Under the pieces are notes generated by a model that worked only from the letters and a program-made list of their open reading frames with translations, was not told the origin of the DNA and ran no database searches. Below, one piece after another: positions 21,966 to 61,540 of a DNA stretch of 64,000 nucleotides. Position 1 is the first letter of the stretch. Each line of letters opens with the position of its first letter. The translations under genes were made by a program, and so were the position numbers. Source of the stretch: Chlamydiota bacterium (lineage in GTDB: Bacteria > Chlamydiota > Chlamydiia > Chlamydiales > RGXB01); the NCBI GenBank assembly GCA_947494155.1, contig CANLTW010000001.1:151971-215970 (forward strand), given 5' to 3'.

Positions 21966-21998
21966 AAGCGGGTCATAAATAAGTGGCCCGTTTTTTTT
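21966..21998 (+). terminator. Intrinsic terminator
   Basis: AAGCGGGTCA...TGGCCCGTTTTTTTT. Confidence 0.85.
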
Positions 21999-22128
21999 AG
22001 AGAAAATGGAAAAAATAAAAGAAAAATTCGGCTTTTTTAAAAAAACAGTTTTAAAAATTCTTAATTTTTCTTATAGGGGGTTTAAAAACTAAGCCATTGC
22101 TTTACCTTTTTAACCCATGAGAGGAAAA

Positions 22129-23244: not shown

Positions 23245-23265
23245 TAAACTCTTAGAAATTTTTAC

Positions 23266-23299
23266 AAAAAAATGGAGATCGTTTTGGTCTCCATTTTTT
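23266..23299 (+). terminator. Intrinsic terminator
   Basis: AAAAAAATGGAGATC-GTTTT-GGTCTCCATTTTTT. Confidence 0.88.
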
Positions 23300-23419
23300 A
23301 TTTAAATAAATTAAAAAAAATTTTTTCAAAAAAAACTATTTACAATTCTTTTTTTTTAGATTATAGGTAGATTAAAAAATAAAGCCGTAGCTTAACCATT
23401 AACCTTTTTGAGGTAAACA

Positions 23420-24526: not shown

Positions 24527-24547
24527 TACAAAGAGAAGAACACGTAG

Positions 24548-24576
24548 AAAAAAGGCCGGTAATCCCGGCCTTTTTT
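24548..24576 (+). terminator. Intrinsic terminator
   Basis: AAAAAAGGCCGG-TAATC-CCGGCCTTTTTT. Confidence 0.9.
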
Positions 24577-24794
24577 ATTTAATTGCAATAGTTGGTTCTT
24601 TAAAAAAACGTATTCAAAAAAAGCTATTGCATCTCTTTATATTACTTGCTGTAATTAAAAATTATTTGCATGAGAAAACACAAAATGAAAATATTTTTTT
24701 AATTTTCTATTTTAAAAAATTCTCCTTTCAGGTATGAGAAGAGTTAATAGGAAAAAAAGCCGTTTGATGAATGTCTAACCTTTAAGAGGAAAAG

Positions 24795-26045: not shown

Positions 26046-26072
26046 GCACTCAAGATCCAGCAGTGTTTCAAC

Positions 26073-26102
26073 AAAAAGGTGCCTACGGGCACCTTTTTTT
26101 TT
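26073..26102. terminator. Bidirectional intrinsic terminator containing the stop codon of the convergent gene
   Basis: AAAAAGGTGCC-TACG-GGCACCTTTTTTTTT. Confidence 0.85.
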
Positions 26103-27132: not shown

Positions 27133-27137
27133 AATAA

Positions 27138-28202: not shown

Positions 28203-28238
28203 TTGTAATTTCAGGAATTTTAAGCAAAAATACTCTAC

Positions 28239-29276: not shown

Positions 29277-29417
29277 AAAAGAGAAAAACAAACCTCCTGG
29301 GAGTACTATAGAAACTATTTTACCCTTTTTTTTCAAAAAATGTTTCCTCTAATTGGGATCTTTTGTAAATAGAAGTTAAGTGTAAAAAATACTGTTTTAA
29401 ATTCTATAGGATTTACC

Positions 29418-30587
29418 ATGAACAGAAAAATATCAAGTTGTTTACCGGTGCTGTTCGTGACAGCCGGTCTATTTGGGGCAGCAGGCAACAGCTCCAGTAA
29501 TACAAAGGAGGCGATCCAAGATTGCGCACCCTTATGTTACGCAAGCCCCATTTTTGAATGTGAATCGCCTTGGGAGGTTTACGGAGGGGCGATTTACCAG
29601 CAGTTTAGAACCCAATCGCAAGAAATTGCTGTTCTCACTCAAGACACAGCTCAACAACCATTCAACCAGACTAACACAAACGGTTACTACCCTGCTCCCT
29701 CCTATCCTTTGAATGGCACAGGGATAGAAAATATGGAAGATTTCGGTTGGGGTGCAAGAATAGGATTTGGTTACAGAACTTGGTACGATGACTGGAAGGT
29801 CAATCTCCGCTACACGTACTTAAAAATTACAACCAATTATCCCTCTCCAAACCTATCCTACGGGATGGGTTATAATCCCTCAGGATACGCAAACCAAATA
29901 ATAAATGGGCAAACCTTACTTCCTAGTCCCCAATTCCAACCATCTGGAGGACAGGTCTCCCAAAGATCCCTTTTTAGAAACTTGGATTATGGTGTCAGCA
30001 CGATTTTTAATGATGTGAACATCTCTATTTCTCGCCCCACAAAGATCAGTAAAGATTTGGAAATAACTACCTATTTGGGATTTGATGTTTCTTTTTTTAC
30101 TAGACGAGCAAACCCTGTATTCACAAATGCTTTTGATGGTGGTTACGCCTTATCGCAGGGACTTTTCTTTCAGAACTATCAAAAAATCTCCTGGTGGGGA
30201 GTGGGGCCGATGATTGGTCTTCATTCAAGTTGGTATCTCGCCTATGATTGGAGTTTTTATGGGGACGCTTTTACTTCTCTTGAGTATGGACTCTCTTCGT
30301 CAAGAACATCTACCTTCTCTAGGACAAGTCAGCAGACCACAACAAGAGAGGCAACGCTTCAAAACTTTCTTTATCAATACAGCCCAAACTACCATTTTGC
30401 TTTAGGGTTTTCTTGGATGAAAATTTTAGAAGAATTTGACACAAAAATCACCTTCAACATTGGTTACGAGACTACATATTTTAGTCAGGTGATCAAACCT
30501 CTTATTCCTGAATTGAACTACAAAACAACAAATGGCGCAGGTCTAGGTTTACAAGGTCTTGTGTTACAAGGTACAGTGGATTTCTAA
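29418..30587 (+). CDS. MOMP-like outer-membrane beta-barrel protein, paralog 6
   Basis: Signal peptide, DCAPLC...C, FQNYQKISWWGVGP, GLQGLVLQGTVDF. Confidence 0.8.
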   Translation: MNRKISSCLPVLFVTAGLFGAAGNSSSNTKEAIQDCAPLCYASPIFECESPWEVYGGAIYQQFRTQSQEIAVLTQDTAQQPFNQTNTNGYYPAPSYPLNGTGIENMEDFGWGARIGFGYRTWYDDWKVNLRYTYLKITTNYPSPNLSYGMGYNPSGYANQIINGQTLLPSPQFQPSGGQVSQRSLFRNLDYGVSTIFNDVNISISRPTKISKDLEITTYLGFDVSFFTRRANPVFTNAFDGGYALSQGLFFQNYQKISWWGVGPMIGLHSSWYLAYDWSFYGDAFTSLEYGLSSSRTSTFSRTSQQTTTREATLQNFLYQYSPNYHFALGFSWMKILEEFDTKITFNIGYETTYFSQVIKPLIPELNYKTTNGAGLGLQGLVLQGTVDF

Positions 30588-30611
30588 TCAACTAAAACGT
30601 TTAACAAAGAA

Positions 30612-30642
30612 GATTCCGGCTCATAAGGCCGGAATTTTTTTT
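30612..30642 (+). terminator. Intrinsic terminator
   Basis: GATTCCGGCT-CATAA-GGCCGGAATTTTTTTT. Confidence 0.88.
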
Positions 30643-30796
30643 GATAAAATATTAAAAACTAATGCTGAAGAAACGGCTGAAAGAGCATTTTGAGCAGTTT
30701 TTCAAACATAAACCTTTTTTTTAAAAAACGGTTTTTGTAAATGGAAGATAACAGATAAAGCCGTATTAAAAGCTAAAACCCTTTCAAAGGTGAGTC

Positions 30797-31906
30797 ATGA
30801 GTCTAAATAAAATTAGAATTCTTCCGATGGTTGTCGCATCAGCAGGTCTTTTTGCCGCGAGTGCGCCAAATCAAAAAAAGATCGATAAAAATGAAGCAAG
30901 AGATTGCAGTTATCTCTGTGTTCCCAGTCCTATGCAAGAGTGCGACGCGCCGTGGGATCTTACGGCAGCCGCCACCTATCAACAAGTGCGCGTGCAAGGT
31001 GCAGATCAGGCGCTAATACAAAACGATCGATTAAACTTTTTTTTCCCTTCAGGCGGGCTTGGAGTGCAGCCTTACGATGATTTTGCCTGGGGTTTTCAAG
31101 TGGGTGCGGGCTATACCGACTATGAAAGAAGCTGGAGATTTGCTGCAGATTATAACTACTTTAAAGCTATTTTCAATAAGCCTCTAGATCTGTCTTACGG
31201 TCAAGCCTTTGTCCCTTCTGCTTACGCTAACGTTGTTTTGGATAGCAACATCGGAGCTTTGGGTTTTAATAACCTCCAATTAGGAAACTATACCCTTTTC
31301 AACAATGTGGATTTGACGGTACAAAGACCTAGTATGATCACACCGAATCTAGAATTTACCACACTTTTTGGGTTTGATGTACAATTCTTACAAAGACGAC
31401 AGCTTTCTGTCTTTACAAATGGTGTGACCGATACTACCACTGTGGGATTTATCTCTTCTTTAGGCGGTTACTTTCAAAACTACCAAAAATATACCTGGTG
31501 GGGCGTAGGACCTGAGGTTGGATTCCATTCGAATTGGAACTTGGGATCGAACTTCTATTTCTTTTTCGATGGAAAAGGTTCCCTCTCTTATGGTCTATCC
31601 TGTATGAGAGCAGCGACTTTTGCTAAAAGGGTTCTCACTGCTCCACTCCTGACTTATGATCAACGTGAGGCTGCTGTGCAGAACTACATGTATCAGTGGT
31701 CACCGGCAATGAAATATCTTTTGGGTATATCCTGGTCAAAAGTACTGGATTCTAGCGAATCCAGGCTTACCATGAGACTTGCCTACTCCTCTCAGTACTT
31801 TTTCTATCTAATGAGATCGGTGAATCCAGAGGGGTACTATCGCTCTGAAAACGGTGCTGGTTTCGGATTGCAAGGGCTTATTTTGAGCGCTTCGATCGAC
31901 TTCTAA
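30797..31906 (+). CDS. MOMP-like outer-membrane beta-barrel protein, paralog 7
   Basis: Signal peptide, DCSYLC...C, FQNYQKYTWWGVGP, GLQGLILSASIDF. Confidence 0.8.
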   Translation: MSLNKIRILPMVVASAGLFAASAPNQKKIDKNEARDCSYLCVPSPMQECDAPWDLTAAATYQQVRVQGADQALIQNDRLNFFFPSGGLGVQPYDDFAWGFQVGAGYTDYERSWRFAADYNYFKAIFNKPLDLSYGQAFVPSAYANVVLDSNIGALGFNNLQLGNYTLFNNVDLTVQRPSMITPNLEFTTLFGFDVQFLQRRQLSVFTNGVTDTTTVGFISSLGGYFQNYQKYTWWGVGPEVGFHSNWNLGSNFYFFFDGKGSLSYGLSCMRAATFAKRVLTAPLLTYDQREAAVQNYMYQWSPAMKYLLGISWSKVLDSSESRLTMRLAYSSQYFFYLMRSVNPEGYYRSENGAGFGLQGLILSASIDF

Positions 31907-31937
31907 AAAGAGAAATAATCTTAAGGTTATTGAAAAC

Positions 31938-31964
31938 AAAGGACCCTTTTTTAAGGGTCTTTTT
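31938..31964 (+). terminator. Intrinsic terminator
   Basis: AAAGGACCCTT-TTTT-AAGGGTCTTTTT. Confidence 0.8.
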
Positions 31965-32063
31965 CTTTTTTAAAACGGCTTGAGAAGACTGCTTAGATTC
32001 TGTTTTTTTGTTTTTCAAATATTTTATTGAACATAAAAGGTTGAATCTCTAGAAGAGGGTGTT

Positions 32064-33236
32064 ATGGTCAAAAACACTCCCTATCTATTTGGAGGTGCCC
32101 TCACGATTAGTTCCATCGTTTGTCTCTCTTTTATAACCCCTTTAAAGGAGGTTTTTTTTAAAGATCATCATCTAATTTTAGCCCAAAACGGTTGTAAAAG
32201 CTCTTTAGAGAATCGAGATGGAATTGAACCTTGTACTGAGGGGAAATATCTAGCTTACGCAGCCCCCCTGGTAGGGTGCACCTATTCGTACGACTTGTCT
32301 TGTGCAGCTACTTATCAAATCTCCTCAGTCCAAGGAGTCGATATTGCCTGTATTACTAACGATCGCACTAACGTTTATTACCCTGTTGGTGGATTAGGTA
32401 TTCAACCCCCCGAAATTCTCGCGTGGGGATTTAAAGTGCAATTGGGGCATAAATTAGAACAAACCGACTGGGTAGTGCGTACTGAGTACAATTATTATAA
32501 AGCTGTAGCCAATTCAGGGACAAGAGTGCCTTACGGCCAGGGATTTTCCCCGTCAGCGTATGTAAATACTCAAGTGGATAAAAAACTTCCCGTATATACT
32601 ATTTTTTCAAACCTTGATATGGGGACATCTACTTTTCTGAATAATTTTCGGCTGAACATATCACGTCCCAGCAGGATCACCCCCCATTTGGAATACACAA
32701 CCCAACTAGGTTTCGAAGCGAATTTTTTCCAAAGAAGACAACTTAGTGTATTTTCCAACGCTGTCGGTGATACAACGACAGGGTATGTTTCTAATCTCGG
32801 AGGGTTTTTTCAAAATTATCAAAAATTCTCCTGGTGGGGATTGGGACCAAGTATAGGTTTAACCTCACGTTGGGATCTGGGGAGTTATTTTTATTTTCTT
32901 GCTAATGGGTATGGTGCAATCACCTACGGAAATTCTTACTCTAGAACTGCAACCTTTAGTAAAAGAGTGATAGGAACCGCTACATTTGATGCACGCGAGG
33001 CTGCTGTTCAAAATGGGATGTCCCAGTTTGCCCCCTCAATGCGCTATCAAATGGGTTTAGAATATTGCTATTTATCTCAAGGGAGCGAAAGTCAGGTTAA
33101 TTTTGAAATTGCGTATGAGACGGCCTACTACTTTAATTTAATCCGTACGATTACCCCTGAAGGGGCGTTTCGAGGGGAAAATGGGGCAGGTTATGGACTA
33201 CAGGGGTTGATTTTACAGGCCGGCATTACATTTTGA
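32064..33236 (+). CDS. MOMP-like outer-membrane beta-barrel protein, paralog 8 (atypical N-terminus)
   Basis: WGFKVQLG, FQNYQKFSWWGLGP, GLQGLILQAGITF; most similar by eye to paralog 7. Confidence 0.78.
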   Translation: MVKNTPYLFGGALTISSIVCLSFITPLKEVFFKDHHLILAQNGCKSSLENRDGIEPCTEGKYLAYAAPLVGCTYSYDLSCAATYQISSVQGVDIACITNDRTNVYYPVGGLGIQPPEILAWGFKVQLGHKLEQTDWVVRTEYNYYKAVANSGTRVPYGQGFSPSAYVNTQVDKKLPVYTIFSNLDMGTSTFLNNFRLNISRPSRITPHLEYTTQLGFEANFFQRRQLSVFSNAVGDTTTGYVSNLGGFFQNYQKFSWWGLGPSIGLTSRWDLGSYFYFLANGYGAITYGNSYSRTATFSKRVIGTATFDAREAAVQNGMSQFAPSMRYQMGLEYCYLSQGSESQVNFEIAYETAYYFNLIRTITPEGAFRGENGAGYGLQGLILQAGITF

Positions 33237-49265: not shown

Positions 49266-49931
49266 ATGATGAAATACTTGCTTTTGCGGCTGCCTGGGGC
49301 GCTATTGGTTTTTGGTTTTTTAATCATCGTCCATTACATGCAGTTTAGCTTCGTTCCCGTTAAGAATAGGTTCGGTGCATTATTTAGCCGAATCGAAGCC
49401 GAAAATTTTGATGTTTTTATCATCTCGACGGAGGAAAAACCGGTCTCAAAGGAGCTTGTTGACTCATTACTAGGGCAAAAAGATGCAGAGGTTAAAGTGC
49501 ACCTGCTGGATCTCAGACAGGCAAAAGGGGAATTTCATGAGAAAGAAAAATTTGAGTACAAACGTTGTGCCCCCGTTGAGCTCCTCGATTTTTTTCATAA
49601 AGAGGTTTCCAAAATCAACCCTAAACATATTCTTGTATTTATAGACCCTCTAGAAAAAAAGGTGCACCCCTTTCTTATGAGAAAAATCAGGCATCTCTTC
49701 CATAGCCGCGAGGTGAAAGCTGTTTATACCGATAGAAAAGTAAAGCCTACGCAGAAGCATCCGGGATGGGAGCAGGCAAAAATAAAAGCCTACCATGTTG
49801 AGCTTATCAAGCAACTTGATATAGAGAAAATCCGGACTTTGGAAGAGTATCATCAAGGAATTTTTTTCTTAACCGATGAGAATTTTCTTTTTTCAACAAA
49901 ACTTCTGGATCCTGACCCCGAAAATATTTGA
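49266..49931 (+). CDS. Membrane-anchored, degenerate GT2-like protein
   Basis: N-terminal TM; FDVFIIS...SLLGQ...VHLLD...ILVFIDP pattern resembles GT2 but the acidic motifs are eroded. Confidence 0.45.
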   Translation: MMKYLLLRLPGALLVFGFLIIVHYMQFSFVPVKNRFGALFSRIEAENFDVFIISTEEKPVSKELVDSLLGQKDAEVKVHLLDLRQAKGEFHEKEKFEYKRCAPVELLDFFHKEVSKINPKHILVFIDPLEKKVHPFLMRKIRHLFHSREVKAVYTDRKVKPTQKHPGWEQAKIKAYHVELIKQLDIEKIRTLEEYHQGIFFLTDENFLFSTKLLDPDPENI

Positions 49932-49969
49932 AAAGTTCAATTGAAAGTTTTTTCTTAAGAGATTTCCCC

Positions 49970-51040
49970 ATGCGCTTACCCCTTTTTCTTCTATTTGTCA
50001 CCCCCTTCTTTCTTATTGCCAAAGAGAGCTACGAGACGATTCACGAAAAATTTTCTCACCCTGGCTGCTATGAGCAAAATAGAGATTTTTGTCAGAAAGT
50101 GCACCGTATTGTACTAAACGAGTTTCCCCGTGCCTACAACCCCTCCTTAATTTACACCGAGCATGGATATACCCTTTTTTTCCGTTTTGATGAGTTTTCT
50201 CCGCATCAACAAAAAAACAGTCGATTTTCGTGCATGACCTATGTGGGTTGTGTGGAGTTGAACAGATCCTTCATGCCTATTTCCAACATAAAAGTGCTGG
50301 ATTTGAAAAGTTCTTACGCTGAGGATCCCCGGTGTATCCTTTTTGAAAACCAGCTCTATTTATTTTATAACGACATCGATATCAAAGAGCCTTCAATCAG
50401 AAAAATGAAAATGGCGATTTTGGAGCCTAAGACCAAAAGAGTTTTGGAAATTGTGGATCTCCCGGGTGGAAAAAAGAGAGTAGAGAAAAATTGGACCCCA
50501 TTTGTGTACCAAAAAGAGGGGGAAAAAGGGCTCTATTTTGTGTACGATCTCTCCTTATTTCACGTATATAAGCTGGAAAAACACCAGGAGCAGTGGAAAA
50601 TAGAGCCCCTTTCTCCCCCCTCAATTAAGTCCACTCAAAAAGAGTTTTGGGAGAAGGAGTTTGGCTCTTTGCGCGGAGGGGCCCCTTTAATCCAAGTAGA
50701 TGGGGAGTTATTTTGTTTTTACCACTCCTCTTTTTATGAAAAGAAACCCTTTTGGCAGAAAATCTCAAAAACCTGTTTCTATCATATGGGTCTTATAACT
50801 TTTTGCGAAAAAACTTTAGAACCAAAAGGGATGCTCCCCTTTCCTATCTTTTATTCGGATGCGTTTGCGACACCCAGAGGGGAACGTTTCAATAAGTGGG
50901 TGATTTATCCCTCAGGCGCAGTCTATAATAAAGAAGAAGGGAAAGTCTTAGTTTCTTTAGGGGAAAATGACCGGGGTATGCTTATTTTGGAATTTGATAA
51001 AGAGATATTTTCAAAAAAACTAGTTCCAATAGAAAAATAA
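49970..51040 (+). CDS. Exported five-bladed beta-propeller glyco-enzyme (GH130/GT91/GT108-like), paralog 1
   Basis: Signal MRLPLFLLFVTPFFLIA; YNPS, EDPR, EKNWTPF, LRGGAP, VIYPSG, GEND. TTG 49928 is an alternative start. Confidence 0.65.
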   Translation: MRLPLFLLFVTPFFLIAKESYETIHEKFSHPGCYEQNRDFCQKVHRIVLNEFPRAYNPSLIYTEHGYTLFFRFDEFSPHQQKNSRFSCMTYVGCVELNRSFMPISNIKVLDLKSSYAEDPRCILFENQLYLFYNDIDIKEPSIRKMKMAILEPKTKRVLEIVDLPGGKKRVEKNWTPFVYQKEGEKGLYFVYDLSLFHVYKLEKHQEQWKIEPLSPPSIKSTQKEFWEKEFGSLRGGAPLIQVDGELFCFYHSSFYEKKPFWQKISKTCFYHMGLITFCEKTLEPKGMLPFPIFYSDAFATPRGERFNKWVIYPSGAVYNKEEGKVLVSLGENDRGMLILEFDKEIFSKKLVPIEK

Positions 51041-51053: not shown

Positions 51054-52172
51054 ATGTGGACCCCCTTTATTTCAACGCTTTTGACACTTTCGATCTCTAT
51101 AGCTGGAACAATCAATAAAAGAGATGGGATCGGGAGGCAATCGATCGAATTGGGGACCGCATTAAAAAACACCTATAACATTCAGGTGGTCCCTTTTGGA
51201 GAATGTGGAGAGCTATCTAAAGAGGAGATGGAACTTGTAGAGACCGATTTGAGGAATCTTCACCCGATTGTGCTTCTCAATACATCGCTTCCCGAAATTC
51301 CCCACATGGTGGAAATCTTAAAAAGATATAAAAAGCCTGGGCAAAGATTTTTGGCGTATACCATGATTGAATCGGATTTTGTGGATCCAAGATTTGTCGA
51401 ATATCTTAATTTTTTCGAGGCCATTCTTGTTCCCGACCCATTCCTGGTGGAGGTATTCCAAAAAAGCGGCGTTAAGCCCCCTATTGAGGTGATACCTCTC
51501 GCGGTCGATTTGAGTAAATTTCTCTCAAAACCATTAAAAAAAACGCTCCATAAACCTTTTGTGTTTGGAAATTTTTCCGGTTGTATTTTTAGAAAAGACC
51601 AAAAAATTCTCCTGGAGGCTTTTCATGAGGAGTTTGGATCCTCAGAAGAGGTTTTATTGTATCTGTTTTTTAGGGGAGGAGATACAGCGTGTATCAAGGA
51701 AATACGGAAGTATATTCAATCTCACGGGTTAAAAAATGTGAAAATAGAATCGGGCCCTAAGCCCCCAAGGGCGTATATTGAGGCCTTCGAGTCGCTGGAT
51801 TGTTACGTCTCGCCCTCATGGGGTGAGGGGTTTAGTATTCAGCCTCGGGAGGCGATGGCTTTAGGAATACCCACCATAGTTTCTAGAAATACCGGGCAAA
51901 TCACTATAGCCGATTCGGGTTTGGCGTTTGTCCTTTGTAAACAAGAGAATATTAAAGCTGTGTATTCTTTAGGTTATAATATTTTTAATATGGGCAATAT
52001 GCAGCGCTCTAATAAAGAGGAGCTAAAGGAGCTTCTGAAAAAAATCTTTATCCAAAAAAATATGATTCTAGATGGAAATGAAAAATTGCGCGATTGGGCG
52101 ACCCGATACGATATTGAGCGGGGCCCTTTTGTGGAGGAATTTATCCAATTTTTTGAAAAAACTTTTGGGTGA
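51054..52172 (+). CDS. GT4-family (GT-B) glycosyltransferase
   Basis: DGIGRQS, YTMIES, IPLAVD, RKDQ..LLEAF, DCYVSPSWGEGFSIQPREAMALGIP. Confidence 0.85.
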   Translation: MWTPFISTLLTLSISIAGTINKRDGIGRQSIELGTALKNTYNIQVVPFGECGELSKEEMELVETDLRNLHPIVLLNTSLPEIPHMVEILKRYKKPGQRFLAYTMIESDFVDPRFVEYLNFFEAILVPDPFLVEVFQKSGVKPPIEVIPLAVDLSKFLSKPLKKTLHKPFVFGNFSGCIFRKDQKILLEAFHEEFGSSEEVLLYLFFRGGDTACIKEIRKYIQSHGLKNVKIESGPKPPRAYIEAFESLDCYVSPSWGEGFSIQPREAMALGIPTIVSRNTGQITIADSGLAFVLCKQENIKAVYSLGYNIFNMGNMQRSNKEELKELLKKIFIQKNMILDGNEKLRDWATRYDIERGPFVEEFIQFFEKTFG

Positions 52173-52179
52173 GAGTACG

Positions 52180-53250
52180 ATGATTATGTTATTTATGAAT
52201 ATTTGGCTTGGTTCAGCTCTTTTTGCGATGACAATTGCAATCGATAGCCCAATTTTACAACAAAAAGAGTGTCTTGAAGCAAATGAGGGGATTTTTTTTT
52301 CTGTAAAGAAGATCGATATCCCCCGACATAAAAATACATATAACCCCTCTATTGTCACTTCAAAAGGGGGCTACACCCTTTTTTTTCGTTATGACGAGAA
52401 AGAAGAACATTTTTTTCACGAAAAAAAGTTTGGTGGTTGTACTTACATAGGGTATTGCCAACTTTCAAAAGAGCTTGAGGTGATATCTAAGCCGAGGTTT
52501 TTAGACCTTAAAAGCTCCTATGCGGAGGATCCTCGAGCGGTCTCTTATGGGGGGAAAATTTACGTTTTTTATAACGACATTGATTTCCAAGATTCTCTCA
52601 AAAGGAAAATGAAATTAGCCGTTTTGGATGAAGAAAGCCTAAAAGTGGAAACCCTCTATTTTATCCCGGGAGGAAAAAGGAGAGTCGAAAAGAACTGGAC
52701 TCCGATTGTATTTGATGAGGGAGAGAAACAGAGACTTGGATTTATCTACAGTTTCGATGATCTTTCTCTATTTACGATCGATTTTATCGACCAAAAAATT
52801 GTTGTAGAACCCTATGGAACCGAAAAAATGGGGGGGAATTATCCCTTTGCGTGGCTTAAAAAATATGGGTTTCTAAGAGGCGGTGCCCCCGTATTTTACG
52901 CTGATGACCGCTTCTGGGCTTTTTTTCACTCCTATTTTAAAATTAAAACTCCGGTGAACAATTATGAAGATCGGAAAAGTTTTTTCTATGTGGGGGGTTT
53001 AGTGACATTTGCAGTAAAACCCTCGCTCCATTTTGATAAAATAAGCCGTTTTCCACTTCTCTATGAGGGGGCGTTTTCTACTAAAAGAGTCCGCTGTTTT
53101 GATAAAATGGTGATCTATCCCTCTGGCTGCGTCTACGATAAAGAGACTCGAGTGGTGCTTTTAGCAGTTGGAGAAAACGACAGCGGCATCAAACTTTTGA
53201 AAGCCGATTTGGATTCTTTAAAAAATTCGATGGAAAAGGTCAATCCATGA
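52180..53250 (+). CDS. Exported five-bladed beta-propeller glyco-enzyme, paralog 2
   Basis: Hydrophobic N-terminus; YNPS, DLKSSYAEDPR, GGKRRVEKNWTP, LRGGAP, VIYPSG, GEND. Confidence 0.65.
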   Translation: MIMLFMNIWLGSALFAMTIAIDSPILQQKECLEANEGIFFSVKKIDIPRHKNTYNPSIVTSKGGYTLFFRYDEKEEHFFHEKKFGGCTYIGYCQLSKELEVISKPRFLDLKSSYAEDPRAVSYGGKIYVFYNDIDFQDSLKRKMKLAVLDEESLKVETLYFIPGGKRRVEKNWTPIVFDEGEKQRLGFIYSFDDLSLFTIDFIDQKIVVEPYGTEKMGGNYPFAWLKKYGFLRGGAPVFYADDRFWAFFHSYFKIKTPVNNYEDRKSFFYVGGLVTFAVKPSLHFDKISRFPLLYEGAFSTKRVRCFDKMVIYPSGCVYDKETRVVLLAVGENDSGIKLLKADLDSLKNSMEKVNP

Positions 53251-53867
53251 GCTTTTTTTTTAACATTTTAGTTCTATTCCCTCTTTTTTATTTGAATATA
53301 GAGGCAAACCCCAAAGTCGAGAGAATCATCGGATTTACCCCATATTTCAGGGTTTTAGAGCGTTTTATGGAGAAAGAATCAGATACATTTCTGCATACGG
53401 AAGCACTGGTATTTGCAGATCTTATGAAGCTGTTTGTACCAAAAAATATCGTGGTTTTGGGAAATTCCAACACAATGTATCCCTTTATGTGTGCCTACTT
53501 TTTGCGCTATTTTGGTGAGGGGAAAGTCTACCACTTCACTGCTTTGGAAAACAAAAAAGAGGCTTATTTGCAAAAAAAATTGCAAAAGTGTTTGAACCGA
53601 TTCCATTTGAATTCGTTTTATCTGGAAACAACCAAAATAAAAGAACTCCCGGAAAAAATCGATATCCTTATTTTAGATTTCAATAGCGGCAGAGAGCCTT
53701 TTATGGAAAGACTTCAAGATTTAAAGGGGAGATTAGCTAAAAATAGTCTGGTTTGGGTGCAAAGCAAAAATAGGGAGATCCCCCCTTCAAACATACCTTT
53801 AACCCCCCTTTCGATCGATCTTTTAGAGGAAGATTCTTTAGTTAGGGTCTATCAAGCACGCGTGTAA
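53247..53867 (+). CDS. Exported class I methyltransferase-fold protein with a degenerate SAM motif
   Basis: Signal ending NIEA; PKNIVVLG...GEGKVY...IDILILD...LAKNSLVWV. Confidence 0.45.
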   Translation: MSFFFNILVLFPLFYLNIEANPKVERIIGFTPYFRVLERFMEKESDTFLHTEALVFADLMKLFVPKNIVVLGNSNTMYPFMCAYFLRYFGEGKVYHFTALENKKEAYLQKKLQKCLNRFHLNSFYLETTKIKELPEKIDILILDFNSGREPFMERLQDLKGRLAKNSLVWVQSKNREIPPSNIPLTPLSIDLLEEDSLVRVYQARV

Positions 53868-53952: not shown

Positions 53953-54903
53953 CTACGAGGGAGCTTGATAGGGTTTGAAACTCAAGACGTAGCCCTGTTT
54001 TACCTCGATACGGTAGACAATCAATAGCCCAAATGAGACCACAGCTGTACTCAGTAAAATGATAGGGTGAAACGGTTCGCTGTGGAAAAGGTAGGCGTTT
54101 ATAGAGGCAAATAGGGGGCTTAATAGGTCAAAAAAGGAGATCAAGGTCTCAGAAAACCTTTTCAAAAGATATCCATAAAGATTAGAGCAGAGGATATTCG
54201 ATACTAAAATGATTAAGATCATCCATCCAAAGTAAGGTTTACAATCAAGATTTGCCCACTGTTGAAGGGGGCCTTGCTCAATAAAAAAAGAGGTTATTAG
54301 CGCAAGTAGGCCCCCAAAAAGCATGCTGTAACCATTTATTTTTACCAGGCACATATGTTGAGCTTTGAGAAGCAATCTCATTAAAATCCAGCCGTAAACT
54401 CCGCAAAAAGAGCCCGCGACGGCTGCAATCGAGGGCCAAGAGAAGAGCGCGTCGATTTTGAAAGGGGCCTCTTGGCCGTTTTGAATCATCAATACAGGTA
54501 AAAAACCGACAATAGCAACCCCCACGCCGAACCATTTGATTATCGTCAACTTCTCTTTTAAAAAGATAAAGGACAATAAGCAGGATATAAGAACGCATAC
54601 GCAGGGTGACATGCTGTAGAAAAAGCAGGTTTTAGCCGTGGAGAGGTACTTTAGGCTTAAGTGCTCACAAAGATTGTTAAAATAGATGCTAAACAAAGAA
54701 AGAATGAAAAGGGATATCGCCTCCGTTGAGGAAATTTTGATCGATTGGAATCCCTTTAGCAAAAGCCCTCCCAAAAGGAGAAGCCCAGCTAAAAGCATTC
54801 TTACCCCTACAGTAAAAATCGGATCTGCATAAGCCACAAGCTGTTTTCCGATAGGAAAAGTCAGATGCCCAAGACCATGTAAAAGGGGAATAAGCCAAAT
54901 CAT
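53953..54903 (-). CDS. DMT/EamA-family transporter (similar to the chlamydial SAM/SAH transporter family)
   Basis: About 10 TM helices; PIFTVGVRMLLAG, LKYLSTAKTCFFY, LYGYLLKRFS. Confidence 0.85.
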   Translation of the reverse strand: MIWLIPLLHGLGHLTFPIGKQLVAYADPIFTVGVRMLLAGLLLLGGLLLKGFQSIKISSTEAISLFILSLFSIYFNNLCEHLSLKYLSTAKTCFFYSMSPCVCVLISCLLSFIFLKEKLTIIKWFGVGVAIVGFLPVLMIQNGQEAPFKIDALFSWPSIAAVAGSFCGVYGWILMRLLLKAQHMCLVKINGYSMLFGGLLALITSFFIEQGPLQQWANLDCKPYFGWMILIILVSNILCSNLYGYLLKRFSETLISFFDLLSPLFASINAYLFHSEPFHPIILLSTAVVSFGLLIVYRIEVKQGYVLSFKPYQAPS

Positions 54904-54967: not shown

Positions 54968-56362
54968 TTATCCCCTTTTACCTATTCCGATGTAGAAAAA
55001 TCCCGCTTGTTCTATCTCTTTGCGATCAAGGATATTTCTGGTATCAAAGACAACCGAAGCCTTAGACACCTCTTTTACCTTTTTCCAGTCGATTTGGGTA
55101 AAAAGGCTCCAGGGGGTAGCAATTACAATAGCGTCGCACTCTCTAAAAACTTCATATAGGGTGGATGCAATAGCTAGATTGGGAAAAAACTTAAGGGCAT
55201 TTGTTGAGGCTATAGGATCAAAACTGGTTACAAAAGCTTTTTTCTCATGGAGTTTCTCGATCATCTTTAAAGAGGGAGATTCTCTAACGTCATCGGTTAA
55301 CTCTTTAAAAGCAAGACCTAGTAGAGCGATTTTTTTACCCTCAAGAGAGCCTAGGGCACTTTCGAGCCGCAAAAGAATTTTGTCGCAACGGCGGTTGTTG
55401 GAACCCACTGCCGCCTCAATGATACTTAGATCCACACCATTTTTCTGGGCAGTTTTTAGAAATGCTAGTGTGTCCTTTGGAAAGCACGATCCACCATAGC
55501 CAGGACCAGGTTTAAGAAAACTCTGCCCTATTCTTTTATCTAATCCTATCCCTAAAGCTACCTCCTCCACATCGGCCCCTATTTCTTCACAGAAATTTGC
55601 AATCTCATTTATGAAGGAAATTTTTACCGCTAAAAAAGAGTTAGAGGCATATTTGATCATTTCTGCAGAGGCTATGGAGGTGGTGCAAATTTTGGCTCCA
55701 TCGTCCAAAATTGGTTGGACGATTTCGGTAAAAAGTTGTGAGGTTTGTGGATCCTCAGCTCCAATCACCACACGATCGGGGTGCATAAAATCGTGCACCG
55801 AGGAGCCCTCACGTAGAAATTCAGGGGCATAACCAATAGAAAATGGGGTCTTTGCTGTGTTGTGTTCCCCAATCACCTCTTTTATTTTTAGCACTGTACC
55901 CATCGGGACAGTGCTTTTTACAAAAACGGTCTTAAAAGTACGAAGATTTTCCCCTATCATCTTTGCTACAGCAAACACATATTCAAGGTTAGCTTCCCCG
56001 CTCAAAGTTTCGGGAGTTCCCACAGTAATAAAAATGACGTTGCTTTCGCGAACGGCATTTTCTAAAGAGGTGGTAAAAAAAAGGCGATTCTGGGCGAAAT
56101 TTTTCTTCACAAGCTCTTCTAGCCCTATTTCATAAATAGGGATTTGACCCTGTTGCAAAGAGGAAATTTTTTGGAAATCTACATCACAGCAGGTCACCTT
56201 GTGCCCAATTTCTGCAAGACAAGTCCCCAAAACCAAACCCACGTATCCCGTCCCAACCACGGTGATTTCTTGAGGGTTTTTTACCGAGTTCAAAGCATAG
56301 ATAGAGGGTTTTAAACAGAAGAAACTTATAAAAAAAAGAATCCTTAGCGAAAAGAGACCCAT
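54968..56362 (-). CDS. ugd: UDP-glucose 6-dehydrogenase with an N-terminal signal-peptide-like extension
   Basis: VVGTGYVGL, VGTP, KSTVP, PEFLREG, EMIKYASN, GYGGSCFPKD, DDVRESP; GAGG SD before ATG 56362. Confidence 0.92.
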   Translation of the reverse strand: MGLFSLRILFFISFFCLKPSIYALNSVKNPQEITVVGTGYVGLVLGTCLAEIGHKVTCCDVDFQKISSLQQGQIPIYEIGLEELVKKNFAQNRLFFTTSLENAVRESNVIFITVGTPETLSGEANLEYVFAVAKMIGENLRTFKTVFVKSTVPMGTVLKIKEVIGEHNTAKTPFSIGYAPEFLREGSSVHDFMHPDRVVIGAEDPQTSQLFTEIVQPILDDGAKICTTSIASAEMIKYASNSFLAVKISFINEIANFCEEIGADVEEVALGIGLDKRIGQSFLKPGPGYGGSCFPKDTLAFLKTAQKNGVDLSIIEAAVGSNNRRCDKILLRLESALGSLEGKKIALLGLAFKELTDDVRESPSLKMIEKLHEKKAFVTSFDPIASTNALKFFPNLAIASTLYEVFRECDAIVIATPWSLFTQIDWKKVKEVSKASVVFDTRNILDRKEIEQAGFFYIGIGKRG

Positions 56363-56448
56363 AAAAAAACCCTCGAAGAAACAGAAATTGAATGTTAATA
56401 TTCAATAATGTTAATTTTTAAACTATTTAGCAATCTTTTGTTTTAAAT

Positions 56449-57252
56449 TTGAATTTGTTTTATGCGATTTTTTTAGGTATTTTCTTAAGTTCTCTTTTTC
56501 CTTTAGAGGCACAACAGCAGGACAAAAGAAAAGCGCTAATCCTAGTAATTTCTAGCGATAATGAGAAAGTTTATCGCTCCCATAAAACCTCCTGGAGAAG
56601 GTATATGCATGCTTTTTCGGAGGATTTTGAAAGCTACTTTATAGAATTTAATCCCCAGTTAACTACCTCTTACAAAGTAGAAGGGGATGTTTTGCAAATA
56701 CAAGGGGAGGAGTCCTATATACCAGGAATATTTGATAAAACACTCCTTGCGTTGAAATATTTTGAAGATCGTTTTGATGCATTTGACTTTGTGATACGGC
56801 CCAATCTTTCGAGTTTTCTCGTTCTTAGCAGGTTGAAAAACTATTTATCAAAACAAAAAAAAGAGAATTTTTATGCAGGACACCCTCTTTTTTACCAAGA
56901 TTATGAGGCGATCAGAGGAAACCACCTCCTCTATGCCAGTGGTGCTTGCCCTATATTTTCCATCGATATGGCAAAGCACTTGATCAAAACAGGAGAAAAC
57001 TTGATGGGCAAGCCCTACGGGGTGTACTACGCAGATGACCTACTTCTGGGCAAAGTTTGTAAAGAAAAGGGTGTGGGGTTAACACCATTCTATAGTTTTT
57101 ATTTCGAACGATTTGTTTCCCCCTATAAGGTTCTGGGCTCTATTTCTCAAGAGACATTCCATTTTCGCATCAAGCTCAATCAGGAGACAAGACACATTTT
57201 TGAAAGGACAATCCATAGAGAGCTCTATGAAATTTTTTATTACCAATCTTAA
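56449..57252 (+). CDS. Exported GT31/Fringe-like glycosyltransferase, paralog 1
   Basis: Signal ending PLEA; LILVISS, ESYIPGIFDKT, FDFVIRPNLSSF, YASGA, ADDLLLG. Confidence 0.6.
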   Translation: MNLFYAIFLGIFLSSLFPLEAQQQDKRKALILVISSDNEKVYRSHKTSWRRYMHAFSEDFESYFIEFNPQLTTSYKVEGDVLQIQGEESYIPGIFDKTLLALKYFEDRFDAFDFVIRPNLSSFLVLSRLKNYLSKQKKENFYAGHPLFYQDYEAIRGNHLLYASGACPIFSIDMAKHLIKTGENLMGKPYGVYYADDLLLGKVCKEKGVGLTPFYSFYFERFVSPYKVLGSISQETFHFRIKLNQETRHIFERTIHRELYEIFYYQS

Positions 57253-58018
57253 GCTGTTTTTTTGGATCTTATGCGTCACTAGTGAGGGAAATGCCGTTTC
57301 AAAGACAAAGAAGGGGCTAGTTCTCCTCTTTTGTTCGGAAGATACACACAGAGATCGAATACATAAAAAAATTTGGCAAAAGTCCTTGGAGGAGCATAAA
57401 GAGGATTTTGAGATCTACTATGTTCATCGCAAGTGCGATCTTACAGCTATCTACGCCATCGAGGAAGAGAGCCTATTTCTTAAGAGACCTAAAGAGGCTT
57501 TATGGCAGACGAGTTGGGGATGGATCGAATCCCTACATATTTTGCAAAATAGGTTAGAGGCTTTTGATTATGTTATTCAGGCAGATATCCGCTCTTTTCT
57601 AGTGATGCCAAAGCTGAAAAATATCCTTGAAAAATACGACGATCCCACACTGTATTTGGGAAACGTTCTCCACTATGAAAACGGGAGATGCAATGGGGAT
57701 TTTGTGGACCACTCTTTTTGTCTTTTAGGAAAACAGTCGGCAAAATTTCTTGCAAACTCGCCCTCATTTGTTGAGGCTTTAAGAACAAATAAATATCTGG
57801 ACGAGGAGATATTGGTCGGCGCAATACTAAGAAAAAAAGGGATTACCCCGGTCCATATCCCCTCTTTTCCATTGAATCGATTTGTACGACCCTACAAAAT
57901 CAAAGACAGGGTAGAGAGTGCAACTTTTGTATTTCCAGTAGATTTAAAGCAATCGACAAAAAGTTACTATTATAAGGAACAGATTCTTTTAGAAGAGCTT
58001 TTTGAAATTTTTACCTAA
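57227..58018 (+). CDS. Exported GT31/Fringe-like glycosyltransferase, paralog 2
   Basis: Signal ending EGNA; aligns by eye to paralog 1 (FDYVIQADIRSFLV, DEEILVG, RFVRPYK). Confidence 0.55.
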   Translation: MKFFITNLKLFFWILCVTSEGNAVSKTKKGLVLLFCSEDTHRDRIHKKIWQKSLEEHKEDFEIYYVHRKCDLTAIYAIEEESLFLKRPKEALWQTSWGWIESLHILQNRLEAFDYVIQADIRSFLVMPKLKNILEKYDDPTLYLGNVLHYENGRCNGDFVDHSFCLLGKQSAKFLANSPSFVEALRTNKYLDEEILVGAILRKKGITPVHIPSFPLNRFVRPYKIKDRVESATFVFPVDLKQSTKSYYYKEQILLEELFEIFT

Positions 58019-58055: not shown

Positions 58056-59951
58056 TCAAAAGTACGCTCTAGGCTTAGCTAATACCTGAAGATGCTCTAA
58101 AGGGAGCTCTTCAAGAAAGCGACTTTTTTTCATGGGTCTGGAGGTTCCCCAAAGAAAACGGAAGGCGGTGCTTGTGAGAGTCAACCTTCGTTCAGCCCGC
58201 GTCATCCCTACATAAAAAAGCCTTCGCTCCTCTTCAAGATCGGGTAATTCCATTTTAGAATTGATATGTGGCAGGATATCCTCCTCAACGCCCGGAATAA
58301 AACAGGTGTGAAATTCCAGCCCTTTGGAGTTATGAAGAGTCATTAAAAAGATCTTAGGGTCCATGGAGTGGGCTTCATCAAATTTTTGCTTTAAAGAGAG
58401 CTCCTCCAAAAAATCGATTAGGCTTAAATCCGAATTTTCTTTCTCCCACTCGATAGCTTTGGCGATTAAAGCCTCGACGTTTTCTTTACGGTCTTGATAG
58501 GTCTCTTTGTCCTCTTTGAGGAACTCCAAATAGCCGGTATCGTGCAGGATTTTTGTTATTTTTTGAGAGATGGAGGGGATTGTATGCACTGATTGTAAAA
58601 GAAAATAGAACTTGTCCAGCTCCTGTTTTTGTTTAGCCGAAAGGGGGAGATTCTGGCTATTTTGCAATAGATCAATCAGGGTCGTTAAAGTCTGCTGCTG
58701 CATCTCTTTAATTTTTTCCAAAGCTGCATTTCCTATTCCTCTTTTGGGGACATTGATTACCCTTTGAAAAGCTACAAAGTCATTTTTGGATACGGTGAGC
58801 CTAAGATAAGCTAAAAGATCTTTGATCTCTTTTCTTTCATAAAAGGATAAACCTCCAACAATCGTATAAGGGATGCGTAGACGTAAAAGAGCATCTTCAA
58901 GGCTGCGCGACTGAGCATTTGTGCGATACAAAAGGGCGATGCTACCCGGGTCTTGCCCTTGATCGATGAGGGCATCTACCTCTCTAGCGATATACTGCGC
59001 CTCCTCCCTTTCATCAAAAAAAGAGCGCACCTGGATTTTTTCCCCATCTCCCACAGCGCTCCAAAGATTTTTTTCATAACGCCCTTTATTGTGGGCAATC
59101 AGAGCATTAGCCGCTTTAAGAATATGACCGGTAGAGCGGTAGTTTTGTTCCAGCTTGATCACTTTAGCGTTGGGAAAATCCTCTTCAAAGCCTAAAATGT
59201 TTTGGATGCTTGCCCCTCTCCAGGAGTAGATCGATTGGTCCGGGTCTCCAACTACAAAAAGGTTAGAGTGCTTATCCACTAGAAGTTTTGTTAGTGAGTA
59301 TTGGGCATGATTGGTATCTTGGTACTCATCAATCAGAATGTATTTAAATCGATTTTGAATCTCCTCCTTGAGACTCGTCTTATCTCTTAAAAGAAAAACA
59401 GGTAGCAATAAAAGATCATCAAAATCCACGGCGCTACACTCTTTCAAACGATTTTGATACTGAGAGTAGACTTGGTAAAAGTGGTCCTTTCCCCGTTGAT
59501 GCTGAAAATCGAGCGGTAGTAAAAGGGCGTTTTTTGCATCTGAGATCGCTTGGCGCATGTCTTTGAGATGCCCCTTTTCGGGCTTCATATCCAATTCTTT
59601 GAAGCACTCCTTTAATAAGGAGTTCGTATCGTCCTCGTCGTAAATGGAAAAACTTGAGGGGAACCCCAGATGCTCAATGGATTCTCTTAAAAACCGCGCA
59701 CCAAAGGAGTGGAATGTTGTGATTAAAGGGGGTCTTGAGGAGATAGCTAAAATTCTTTGACGCATCTCTTCAGCCGCTTTGTTTGTAAAGGTAACTGCGA
59801 GGATCTCACTAGAGGTAACTCCAGATTGCAAAAGGGCGATGATACGCTCAATAACCACTCGTGTTTTTCCTGAGCCTGCTCCTGCAAGAACAAGAAGGGG
59901 CCCCTCTCTGTGGGAAATCGCAATTTTTTGCTGTGGATTTAGCTCGGGCAT
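58056..59951 (-). CDS. uvrD: ATP-dependent DNA helicase UvrD/PcrA
   Basis: LNPQQ, AGAGSGKT, DEYQDTN, GDPDQSIYSWRGA, QNYRS, TLHNSKGLEF, EERRLFYVGMTRA. Confidence 0.95.
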   Translation of the reverse strand: MPELNPQQKIAISHREGPLLVLAGAGSGKTRVVIERIIALLQSGVTSSEILAVTFTNKAAEEMRQRILAISSRPPLITTFHSFGARFLRESIEHLGFPSSFSIYDEDDTNSLLKECFKELDMKPEKGHLKDMRQAISDAKNALLLPLDFQHQRGKDHFYQVYSQYQNRLKECSAVDFDDLLLLPVFLLRDKTSLKEEIQNRFKYILIDEYQDTNHAQYSLTKLLVDKHSNLFVVGDPDQSIYSWRGASIQNILGFEEDFPNAKVIKLEQNYRSTGHILKAANALIAHNKGRYEKNLWSAVGDGEKIQVRSFFDEREEAQYIAREVDALIDQGQDPGSIALLYRTNAQSRSLEDALLRLRIPYTIVGGLSFYERKEIKDLLAYLRLTVSKNDFVAFQRVINVPKRGIGNAALEKIKEMQQQTLTTLIDLLQNSQNLPLSAKQKQELDKFYFLLQSVHTIPSISQKITKILHDTGYLEFLKEDKETYQDRKENVEALIAKAIEWEKENSDLSLIDFLEELSLKQKFDEAHSMDPKIFLMTLHNSKGLEFHTCFIPGVEEDILPHINSKMELPDLEEERRLFYVGMTRAERRLTLTSTAFRFLWGTSRPMKKSRFLEELPLEHLQVLAKPRAYF

Positions 59952-60286
59952 ATGTGTAAAGAATTCTAGCATAGCCTTAAGAAGTTTGAAAGCCAAACAT
60001 GTGAAAATAGGGCTTGGCCACACAACGGCTGGTTTGTTCCCTTAAAATTCTTTCACATCCAAAGGTATTCAGAGCGACAAAACTTAAGACTAAATTCTTT
60101 TGGTCAAAAAACAGACCTGAATTCTCTTCTTGCACAACAGCTCTTTTTTGATTTTTCTCTAAAACGAAAAAAGGTTGTTTAGAAAAACTATTTAAGGGTC
60201 AAAAGGAATTTTTTTTGAAAATGATTTACCCAGAAACCCCCTTTTCCTTAGTATGGTACCCATTAGTAAAAAAAAATCGGTGTTGA

Positions 60287-61540
60287 GTGAAATTATTTAG
60301 GGTTTACAGCCTCTTTTTCTTTTTTTCCTTTACCCTATTGATGGCAAAAGTCGAAGTCGGGCTTGATCGGGTTTTTCTAGGGGGTGCCCACTCCTCGATT
60401 CAAGGAAAGCGCATCGGTCTTTTAACCAATCACACCGCAGTAGACAGGAACGGCGTTACCGCCATTGATCGGTTCCTTGCAAGAAAAGATTGTAAACTTG
60501 TGGCGTTATTTGCTCCAGAACATGGACTCTACGGTCAACAGCACGCTAGTGAGAAAATCAAGGATTCCAAGAAAGGGGAGGTCCCGATCCACAGTCTTTA
60601 TGGCGCTAATAGAAGACCCACAGATGCTCAGCTTAAAGGGATTGATGTTGTCGTCATAGACATTCAGGATATCGGAGTTCGCTCCTATACCTATGCCTCC
60701 TCGCTATTTTACATGATGGAAGAGGCGGTTAAAAGGAACATTGAGGTTGTGGTTCTCGATCGGCCAAATCCGATTAATGGGCTGACGGTCGATGGCCCGA
60801 TGTTGCACCCTAAGTGGCGCTCTTTTATCGGATATATCAACGTCCCCTATATTCACGGTATGACCCTGGGTGAGCTTGCAGAATTTTTTAATGCCGAGTA
60901 TAAGGTGGCGGCAAAATTGACAGTGATTCCCATGAGGGGATGGAAAAGAGGGATGGATTTTAAGGAGACGGGGATGCAATGGATTCCCACCAGCCCAAAT
61001 ATTCCGGAGTCGGATACCCCTCTATTTTATGCAACAACCGGCCTTTTAGGAGAGCTTCGTCTATGTAACATCGGGGTAGGATACACCCTCCCATTCAAGC
61101 TTATAGGGGCCCCATGGATGAATGCAGAGCAGTTGTCGAGGCACTTAAATAGTCAAGGGCTTAGCGGGGTGAGATTTACCCCGCTTTATTTCAAGCCCTT
61201 CTCTGGTTCCATGGCCCAGCTCGATTGCCAAGGGGTCTTGATACAGGTAATAGATAAAAAAACTTACAAGCCTTTTGCTGTGCAAGGGGTGCTGATAGGT
61301 GCCATAAAATCGCTTTATCCTCAAAAATTCAAAGAGGTGATGTCGCATATAGGAAAATCAGAAAAAGATCTTTTCTGTAAGGCGGTCGGTTCCGAAGAGC
61401 CTTTGCAATTCCTTAAGGAAGAGAAGCTTGTGGGCTGGCAAATAGCAGAATTTCAGCGTGCCGAACGGGAGCTGTTTTTGGAAAAAAGAAAAAATTATTT
61501 GCGTCCCGAATACGCAGAAGACTATAGACCAAATTTATGA
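60287..61540 (+). CDS. DUF1343/NamZ (YbbC)-family exo-beta-N-acetylmuramidase-like protein
   Basis: Signal peptide; GLLTNHT, FAPEHG, SLYG, DIQDIGVRSYTY, LDRPNP, WIPTSPNIP. Confidence 0.88.
   Translation: MKLFRVYSLFFFFSFTLLMAKVEVGLDRVFLGGAHSSIQGKRIGLLTNHTAVDRNGVTAIDRFLARKDCKLVALFAPEHGLYGQQHASEKIKDSKKGEVPIHSLYGANRRPTDAQLKGIDVVVIDIQDIGVRSYTYASSLFYMMEEAVKRNIEVVVLDRPNPINGLTVDGPMLHPKWRSFIGYINVPYIHGMTLGELAEFFNAEYKVAAKLTVIPMRGWKRGMDFKETGMQWIPTSPNIPESDTPLFYATTGLLGELRLCNIGVGYTLPFKLIGAPWMNAEQLSRHLNSQGLSGVRFTPLYFKPFSGSMAQLDCQGVLIQVIDKKTYKPFAVQGVLIGAIKSLYPQKFKEVMSHIGKSEKDLFCKAVGSEEPLQFLKEEKLVGWQIAEFQRAERELFLEKRKNYLRPEYAEDYRPNL

Follow-up and report, generated by a model that had tools for sequence, protein, structure and literature searches.

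In a 64,000-nucleotide window of DNA from a Chlamydiota bacterium (contig CANLTW010000001.1; all positions below are those of the window), the open reading frame (ORF) at 54968..56362 on the minus strand is the ugd gene, which encodes a UDP-glucose dehydrogenase-type protein (Ugd) of 464 residues, followed by a stop codon, with a signal-peptide-like leader ahead of its catalytic body. Its position and N-terminal string agree with a preliminary description of this DNA, in which the gene had been read as a UDP-glucose dehydrogenase with a Sec-type signal peptide and a possible metabolic effector. The UDP-glucose/GDP-mannose dehydrogenase architecture is complete. The N-terminal NAD-binding domain (PF03721, UDPG_MGDP_dh_N; 213.3 bits, E = 2.8e-63; match beginning at residue 32), the central domain (PF00984; 132.2 bits, E = 7.2e-39) and the C-terminal UDP-binding domain (PF03720; 108.3 bits, E = 3e-31) all score far over their Pfam cutoffs. 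The NCBIfam model of nucleotide-sugar dehydrogenases, TIGR03026, gives 476.9 bits against a cutoff of 189.8, and all equivalog models stay under theirs (TuaD, 520.3 versus 700; AglM, 377.7 versus 670). In a search of the PDB, the closest solved relatives are UDP-glucose dehydrogenases, with 4a7p at the top (E = 4.7e-117). These matches place the window protein in the nucleotide-sugar 6-dehydrogenase family. Its catalytic body comprises residues 32–464 (54968..56269, minus strand), with GxGxxG at residues 37–42 and the catalytic-type Cys293 (codon 55486..55484) within GGSCFPKD. In an alignment of 27 leader-bearing sequences of 44%–90% identity to the query, residues G37, G39, G42, D60, T151, E181, E185, K237, N241, C293 and D297 are invariant; their catalytic roles we take to be those of the Streptococcus pyogenes enzyme. 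Conservation of these NAD-binding and catalytic-type residues argues for retained catalysis. Furthermore, an AlphaFold2 prediction made on the leader-bearing alignment gave a confident body with a mean predicted local distance difference test score (pLDDT) of 87, in which strand beta-1 of the Rossmann fold occupies residues 32–36. Judged by its domains and residues, the leader sits on an intact enzyme body.

The start of the gene could be assigned with some assurance. A Shine-Dalgarno-like GAGG is located at 56371..56374 on the minus strand, 8 nucleotides before the ATG at 56362..56360; the preliminary description had likewise noted a well-spaced GAGG ahead of this codon. That description had left the choice between this ATG and an in-frame TTG at Leu24 (56293..56291). 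The TTG is real but has no ribosome-binding site: we found no Shine-Dalgarno-like purine run in the 22 nucleotides before it, nor in the 22 nucleotides before the in-frame GTG at Val35 (56260). Given that the next gene downstream, eamA, has GGAG 5 nucleotides before its ATG, the organism does use such sites. These features support the view that the leader exists and is translated from ATG 56362. The leader itself covers codons 1–23 (56294..56362, minus strand) and consists of an n-region from Met1 to Arg7, the latter providing its positive charge, a core of 10 uncharged hydrophobic residues (8–17) and a c-region of Lys18-Pro19-Ser20-Ile21-Tyr22-Ala23, after which comes Leu24. The n/h/c-like regions noticed in the preliminary description are therefore present, and the pattern recurs in the relatives. 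A putative cleavage site follows Ala23, with Ile21 at –3, Ala23 at –1 and Pro19 at –5. A linker of codons 24–31 (56270..56293, minus strand) then runs from the TTG codon of Leu24 to strand beta-1. A twin-arginine (Tat) signal peptide was ruled out, as the window leader has no RR; a lipoprotein signal was likewise ruled out, as there is no lipobox and Cys16 is preceded by Phe-Phe. One leader-bearing relative, P0017, has a lipobox-like L-L-S-C.

In the AlphaFold2 model, residues 2–16 form a helix detached from the Ugd fold (block pLDDT of 71 and 58), whereas residues 17–31 have no secondary structure and residues 17–23 fall below a pLDDT of 50. Thus, the leader is no extra element of the fold. 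The PDB alignments of solved Ugd-family sequences (E ≤ 1e-30) begin at query residue 29–33 in 29 of 29 cases; accordingly, residues 1–28 have no counterpart in the solved homologs. GxGxxG begins at Gly37 here and at residue 7 or 8 in 192 of 193 non-extended relatives, which yields an extension of about 29–30 residues, close to the 30 first estimated. These same 192 leaderless relatives start 6–7 residues before the motif, in keeping with the earlier statement that Ugd usually begins just ahead of it. Compared with the canonical bacterial Ugd/TuaD type (4a7p, 3gg2 and 2y0c), the window protein has the same three domains, aligned end to end from residue 32, and the same GxGxxG and GGSCFPKD catalytic-Cys motifs. 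It differs from that type in its ~30 N-terminal residues, which are covered by 0 of the 29 solved homologs, and in its score under the TuaD equivalog cutoff.

To judge the leader against chance, its best 10-residue Kyte-Doolittle mean, 2.95, was ranked among the window ORFs of at least 150 residues, where it is third of 52. It exceeds the values of all ten MOMP-like porins, of the NamZ muramidase and of the family-5 solute-binding protein, all of which are expected to be exported, and lies far over those of the housekeeping cytoplasmic proteins RecA, ThrRS, TopA and UvrB. As a control set we used 80 Ugd loci of other phyla (Bacteroidota and Patescibacteria among them) from a genome-contig scan, at 43%–49% identity; 79 of these contain the motif pair. 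Read back in frame, 67 of the 79 reach a stop in fewer than 20 residues, and where more than 12 residues lie upstream (33 loci), a Met stands 6–7 residues before GxGxxG in 31. None of the 79 control loci has a comparable leader in place of the canonical start. A look-up of Ugd in the ESM Atlas returned ordinary Ugd clusters only (Bacteroidota and Pseudomonadota). Taken together, the ranking and the control loci showed that chance does not account for the leader.

Alignment of orthologs had been set beforehand as the test of a conserved extension, and orthologs do carry the leader. We found 39 leader-bearing relatives, 29 from two word-index searches and 10 among 50%-identity representatives; the 30 leader-bearing sequences referred to below are these 29 relatives plus the query, and the full set of relatives plus the query makes 40. 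Among the best 120 database matches, 17 extend more than 20 residues upstream of the motif, with a hydrophobic segment there in all 17; 101 others have 6–7 residues, one has 11, and one lay outside the search pattern. Searching with a profile built from the leader-bearing sequences added 102 proteins, of which 12 have a leader and 90 do not. Of the best 150 50%-identity representatives (1.84 billion proteins), 10 passed the leader criterion and 121 are canonical; P0236 is leader-like yet under the criterion, and the remainder are fusions or have odd starts, with the motif pair missing in 2. Eight of the representatives (P0234, P0241, P0242, P0250, P0263, P0266, P0330 and P0353) are long fusions of 630–4246 residues in which the Ugd domain is internal or duplicated, and these are unrelated to the leader question.

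Sequence analysis of the leaders revealed a shared layout. The n-region is net positive in 30 of 30 sequences (+1 to +4). The cores, with a median length of 13 residues (range 5–21), are typically as long as the h-region of a Sec-type signal peptide, roughly 7–15 residues, and shorter than a membrane-spanning segment. An A-x-A-type site closes the leader in several sequences, many carry a Pro inside the core, and the gap between core and strand beta-1 is just 3–6 residues in several relatives. P0163 is the sole sequence of the 30 with a Met at the canonical –6/–7 position. For every one of eight pairs of relatives, the leaders are less alike than the bodies, for example 60% versus 92% and 30% versus 78% identity, the closest pair being 75% versus 78%. 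Such drift in sequence under a constant layout is what signal peptides typically show. In a 121-protein FastTree tree, calculated on sequences trimmed to begin six residues ahead of the motif, one branch with an SH-like support of 99 sets the 18 leader-bearing rows apart from all others. In a tree of 371 rows, the leader state requires 2 changes against a shuffled mean of 38; this count rests on 359 labelled rows (40 leader-bearing and 319 canonical), with 12 rows uncounted and 2 dropped. Because FastTree warns of long branches, we limit our reading of the trees to one or very few origins. The searches and trees support a leader pattern that is conserved across a whole Ugd lineage.

The genes around ugd point to a wider setting. 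At 64 nucleotides downstream and on the same strand lies eamA (53953..54903, minus strand), encoding an EamA/DMT-family transporter (Pfam EamA, E = 8.5e-28, two stretches). No terminator-like hairpin lies between ugd and eamA, and one follows eamA at 53786..53772; the two genes are probably co-transcribed. No sigma-70-like promoter was found upstream of ugd in a scan whose promoter and terminator counts were at shuffle level. Divergent from ugd, at 56449..57252 on the plus strand, is a gene for a protein of 267 residues with a hydrophobic leader and a GT-A fold. Its match to Pfam Galactosyl_T (PF01762; E = 0.0016) reaches 18.7 bits, under the cutoff of 23 bits. Its AlphaFold2 model (pLDDT 79.9) has 77 Foldseek matches with E ≤ 0.001, and the top matches in the PDB are human B3GalT5 (E = 6.4e-9, TM 0.58), the GT31 domain of CHSY3, and B3GNT2. 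The protein has ten database relatives. A paralog of 29% identity over 239 residues (E = 5e-31) follows at 57227..58018 on the plus strand; its ORF as listed (57113..58018) overlaps the neighboring gene, and Met39 at 57227 is the likelier start, which gives this protein a hydrophobic leader as well. In the alignment, the place of what we take to be the GT31 DDD motif reads differently. Given the Galactosyl_T score under cutoff, we call the 267-residue protein GT31-like and not a GT31 member.

On the other side, four kinds of genes on the plus strand converge on ugd–eamA, whereas the GT31-like pair lies upstream of ugd and diverges from it. The outermost of them encodes a 221-residue protein (49266..49931) that has the most hydrophobic N-terminus in the window and for which no family was found. 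It is followed by a BMT/GH130-like protein with a hydrophobic N-terminal segment (49928..51040; BMT, 29.7 bits against a cutoff of 28.3; GH130, E = 1.6e-5), a GT4 glycosyltransferase (51054..52172; Pfam Glycos_transf_1, E = 4.4e-11) and a second BMT/GH130-like protein (52072..53250). The two BMT/GH130-like paralogs, which flank the GT4 gene, share 39% identity over 313 residues (E = 6e-76). The second ORF as listed overlaps the GT4 gene by ~100 nucleotides, and its internal Met37, after which a hydrophobic segment follows, is the likelier start. The hydrophobic N-terminus of the GT4 protein was rejected as a leader, as it most likely represents the first Rossmann strand. Nearest to eamA is a gene for a 206-residue protein with a signal-peptide-like N-terminus (53247..53867), whose match to Methyltransf_24 (E = 0.035) is under cutoff; if real, this match would add another cofactor-dependent, leader-bearing enzyme to the locus. 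A PDB sequence search gave no matches for the 267-residue protein and EamA, and matches at chance level only for the BMT-like and 206-residue proteins. Similar leaders are thus seen in five neighboring proteins that are sugar-active or of no assigned role, and by this count the Ugd leader is one of several in a sugar-active locus. The preliminary description had missed these neighbors; with them, ugd is better seen as part of a glycan locus with several leaders than as the gene of a single effector.

The surrounding DNA is chlamydial by its gene content. A topoisomerase I–SWIB fusion at the window end passes the chlamydial equivalog model with 1166.6 bits against a cutoff of 868. Ten paralogous MOMP-like porin genes of about 370–416 codons occupy 19453–33236 on the plus strand; each product has a signal peptide and a conserved C-terminal Phe, and the first matches Pfam Legionella_OMP (E = 2.9e-19). 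For comparison, 37 MOMP and MOMP-like proteins are cited for Simkania negevensis (PMC6490308), which would be in line with a Simkania-like source of the window. The porin array is interrupted by three genes (26083–27132 and 27138–28202, minus strand; 28239–29276, plus strand), none of whose products has a Pfam family and all of which begin with a hydrophobic stretch. The first two are paralogs of 31% identity, and the three could be additional enzymes with leaders. A NamZ-type exo-beta-N-acetylmuramidase with a leader (60287–61540, plus strand) points to peptidoglycan turnover in a chlamydial genome. At 11124–12673 on the plus strand, a gene for a ParA-type ATPase is followed by a UPF0137 gene of the chlamydial plasmid pGP6-D type, in surroundings that otherwise resemble chromosomal housekeeping DNA. 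The PcrA/UvrD helicase gene (58056–60023, minus strand) has a listed GTG start that adds ~24 residues; its Pfam match begins at residue 28, and the internal Met25 is the likelier start. The sole tRNA gene of the window encodes tRNA-Pro (GGG) at 15533–15609 on the plus strand.

These data enable us to propose a putative model, to which we give a probability of about 0.5, in which the window encodes a Sec-exported and catalytically intact Ugd that works in the periplasm or beyond. In this model, the ugd product would be an intact NAD-dependent UDP-glucose 6-dehydrogenase, the first ~23 residues of which would serve as a Sec-type signal peptide, probably cleavable and cut after Ala23. The protein would cross the inner membrane unfolded and act in the periplasm or further out, in the inclusion lumen or on the host side. 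There it would oxidize UDP-glucose to UDP-glucuronate with NAD+ drawn from the host, together with the neighboring leader-bearing glycosyltransferase-like enzymes and the co-transcribed DMT transporter. We infer the Sec targeting, the cleavage after Ala23, the extracytoplasmic site, the host substrates and the link to the neighbors from the features described above. A cleavable Sec signal is favored because the n-regions are positive, the cores are short, a Pro stands near the core end and the –1 residue, and usually the –3 residue, is small. Moreover, as only a few residues lie between the core and strand beta-1 in several relatives, cleavage would leave an N-terminus like that of an ordinary Ugd. 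The protein may stay in the periplasm or may travel past it, perhaps through type 2 secretion, and its sequence is compatible with both.

Several points weigh against export. The signal-peptide call was made by heuristic rules on the leader sequence. A permissive (–3,–1) site is present in 30 of 37 relatives against 24.2 expected by shuffling, a weak excess, and some relatives have Lys or Arg directly after the putative cleavage site, an arrangement that disfavors Sec export in Escherichia coli. Ugd consumes two free NAD+ per product, neither NAD+ nor UDP-glucose is known to occur in the periplasm of free-living bacteria, and no mechanism of NADH removal is evident for an exported Ugd. The link to an intracellular lifestyle is thin, as taxon labels are available for only 2 of the 39 leader-bearing relatives (Simkaniaceae and Candidatus Dependentiae). 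In addition, the ugd–eamA–GT31 neighborhood is known from this one window, and there are no chlamydial loci among the 80 Ugd loci of the genome-contig scan. The objection concerning periplasmic cofactors is softer for an obligate intracellular bacterium, given precedents for both host UDP-glucose and NAD+. According to PMC4829429, Chlamydia trachomatis brings host UDP-glucose into its vacuole, where secreted enzymes use it. A chlamydial symbiont is described in PMC1951785 to import NAD+ in exchange for ADP, from which it follows that NAD+ must reach its periplasm. Beyond the chlamydiae, the gonococcal sialyltransferase uses host CMP-Neu5Ac (PMC4668040). Ugd may perhaps use substrates taken from the host. 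Of the interpretation first offered for this gene, a leader that is real, translated from ATG 56362 and conserved, on an intact enzyme, has held; the role as a metabolic effector is kept as a hypothesis, which the UDP-glucose and NAD+/ADP precedents make plausible by analogy.

The same leader could also remain uncleaved as a tether, either as a monotopic, re-entrant or N-out helix, and hold Ugd on the cytoplasmic face of the inner membrane beside membrane-bound glycan-assembly enzymes, with NAD+ and UDP-glucose coming from the bacterial cytoplasm. We regard this as the main alternative, less likely than export. It fits physiology, as free NAD+ and UDP-glucose are established to be cytoplasmic in bacteria, and a common membrane-tethered assembly line would explain in a simple manner the similar N-termini of the glycosyltransferase-like neighbors; the methyltransferase-like neighbor with a similar N-terminus would need other cytoplasmic cofactors. 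The weak enrichment of cleavage sites is in line with a tether, and so is the Pro within many of the hydrophobic cores, as re-entrant helices carry a Pro in the core, for example in PglC-type enzymes. However, with n-regions that are net positive in 30 of 30 sequences, the positive-inside rule would put the N-terminus in and the body out. The window protein and many relatives have cores of 10–13 residues, a length insufficient for crossing a bilayer or for re-entry into one, and the 3–6 residues between core and strand beta-1 in several relatives suit cleavage better.

If the protein were exported but did not turn over its substrates, acting instead as a UDP-sugar- or NAD-binding protein or moonlighting outside the cell, a periplasmic NAD+/NADH cycle would not be needed. 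The NAD motif and residues T151, E181, E185, K237, N241, C293 and D297 are nevertheless invariant in the 27 leader-bearing sequences, and we hold this explanation to be improbable. A start-codon artefact appears more improbable still. It would place initiation at the TTG of Leu24 or later and make the hydrophobic stretch an untranslated, T-rich leader; the region is indeed T-rich, T-rich DNA translates to Phe, Leu and Ile, and gene callers tend toward long ORFs. Yet GAGG precedes the ATG and no Shine-Dalgarno sequence precedes the TTG or the GTG, 39 relatives keep an open hydrophobic n/h/c leader and 29 of 30 sequences do so without a canonical Met, the 79 Ugd loci of other phyla have no such leader, and the trait amounts to one or two changes on the trees.

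Comparison with known systems places an exported Ugd in context. Nucleotide-sugar interconversion in bacteria is textbook cytoplasmic chemistry, and eukaryotic UGDH is cytosolic as well, whereas membrane-bound UDP-xylose synthases are found among the nucleotide-sugar enzymes of the Golgi. Like the Golgi type II enzymes of family GT31 (B3GalT5, B3GNT2 and CHSY3), the window Ugd has its catalytic domain behind a short hydrophobic segment at the N-terminus; the neighbor at 56449..57252 has a GT31-like fold, and the non-cytosolic compartment of the Golgi enzymes is supplied by DMT-type transporters, a gene for which here adjoins ugd. Unlike them, the window Ugd is of bacterial type and has no stem region, and the Galactosyl_T match of its neighbor is under cutoff. 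A periplasmic Rossmann-fold enzyme with a nicotinamide cofactor and an export signal is known in the glucose-fructose oxidoreductase of Zymomonas mobilis. That enzyme takes the twin-arginine route, and its cofactor stays tightly bound and is regenerated during the reaction itself. Ugd, in contrast, uses up free NAD+, and a twin-arginine motif is absent from the window leader. The Lst sialyltransferase of Neisseria gonorrhoeae is located at the cell surface. It belongs to an unrelated family of transferases without a redox cofactor, whereas Ugd is a dehydrogenase that converts nucleotide sugars. The likeness lies in a bacterial enzyme acting on a host-made nucleotide sugar outside the cytoplasm; for Lst this sugar is host CMP-Neu5Ac (PMC4668040). 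The glycogen enzymes of the C. trachomatis inclusion lumen (Gehre et al. 2016, PMC4829429) resemble the proposed Ugd in that both are nucleotide-sugar-using chlamydial enzymes of cytoplasmic type that are proposed to act on host UDP-glucose outside the cytoplasm. They differ in that they reportedly leave by type 3 secretion and not by a Sec leader, and in needing no NAD+; the case of the window Ugd is a prediction.

A broader model, speculative and in our judgment rather unlikely as a whole, would see the locus as a Golgi-like extracytoplasmic nucleotide-sugar pathway in an obligate intracellular bacterium. In it, a Sec-exported Ugd, the two GT31-like, the two BMT/GH130-like and the methyltransferase-like proteins would be active in the periplasm or the inclusion lumen. 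Supplied there with UDP-glucose, NAD+ and other activated donors, either from the host or through DMT export, they would make or modify a glucuronate-containing surface or vacuolar glycan, and the leader-bearing Ugd lineage of Chlamydiota and Dependentiae would be a marker of lifestyle.

In summary, the enzyme family itself is known; the novelty lies in a leader on Ugd that a lineage has conserved. Searches of an open full-text library yielded no account of a signal peptide on a Ugd, and the Rhabdochlamydia papers examined mention neither UDP-glucose nor glycosyltransferases. If the leader proves to be a tether to the cytoplasmic face only, it would still be a new, conserved, though modest, way to organize a glycan assembly line. 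The finding is of interest for the metabolism of chlamydiae and symbionts, with the topology of Ugd as a prediction. If the lineage does work outside the inner membrane, the periplasm or vacuole of chlamydia-like and Dependentiae-like symbionts must offer NAD+ and UDP-glucose. The idea of the vacuole as a metabolic compartment controlled by the pathogen would then extend beyond glycogen, and an unrecognized glucuronate-containing glycan at the host interface would be indicated.

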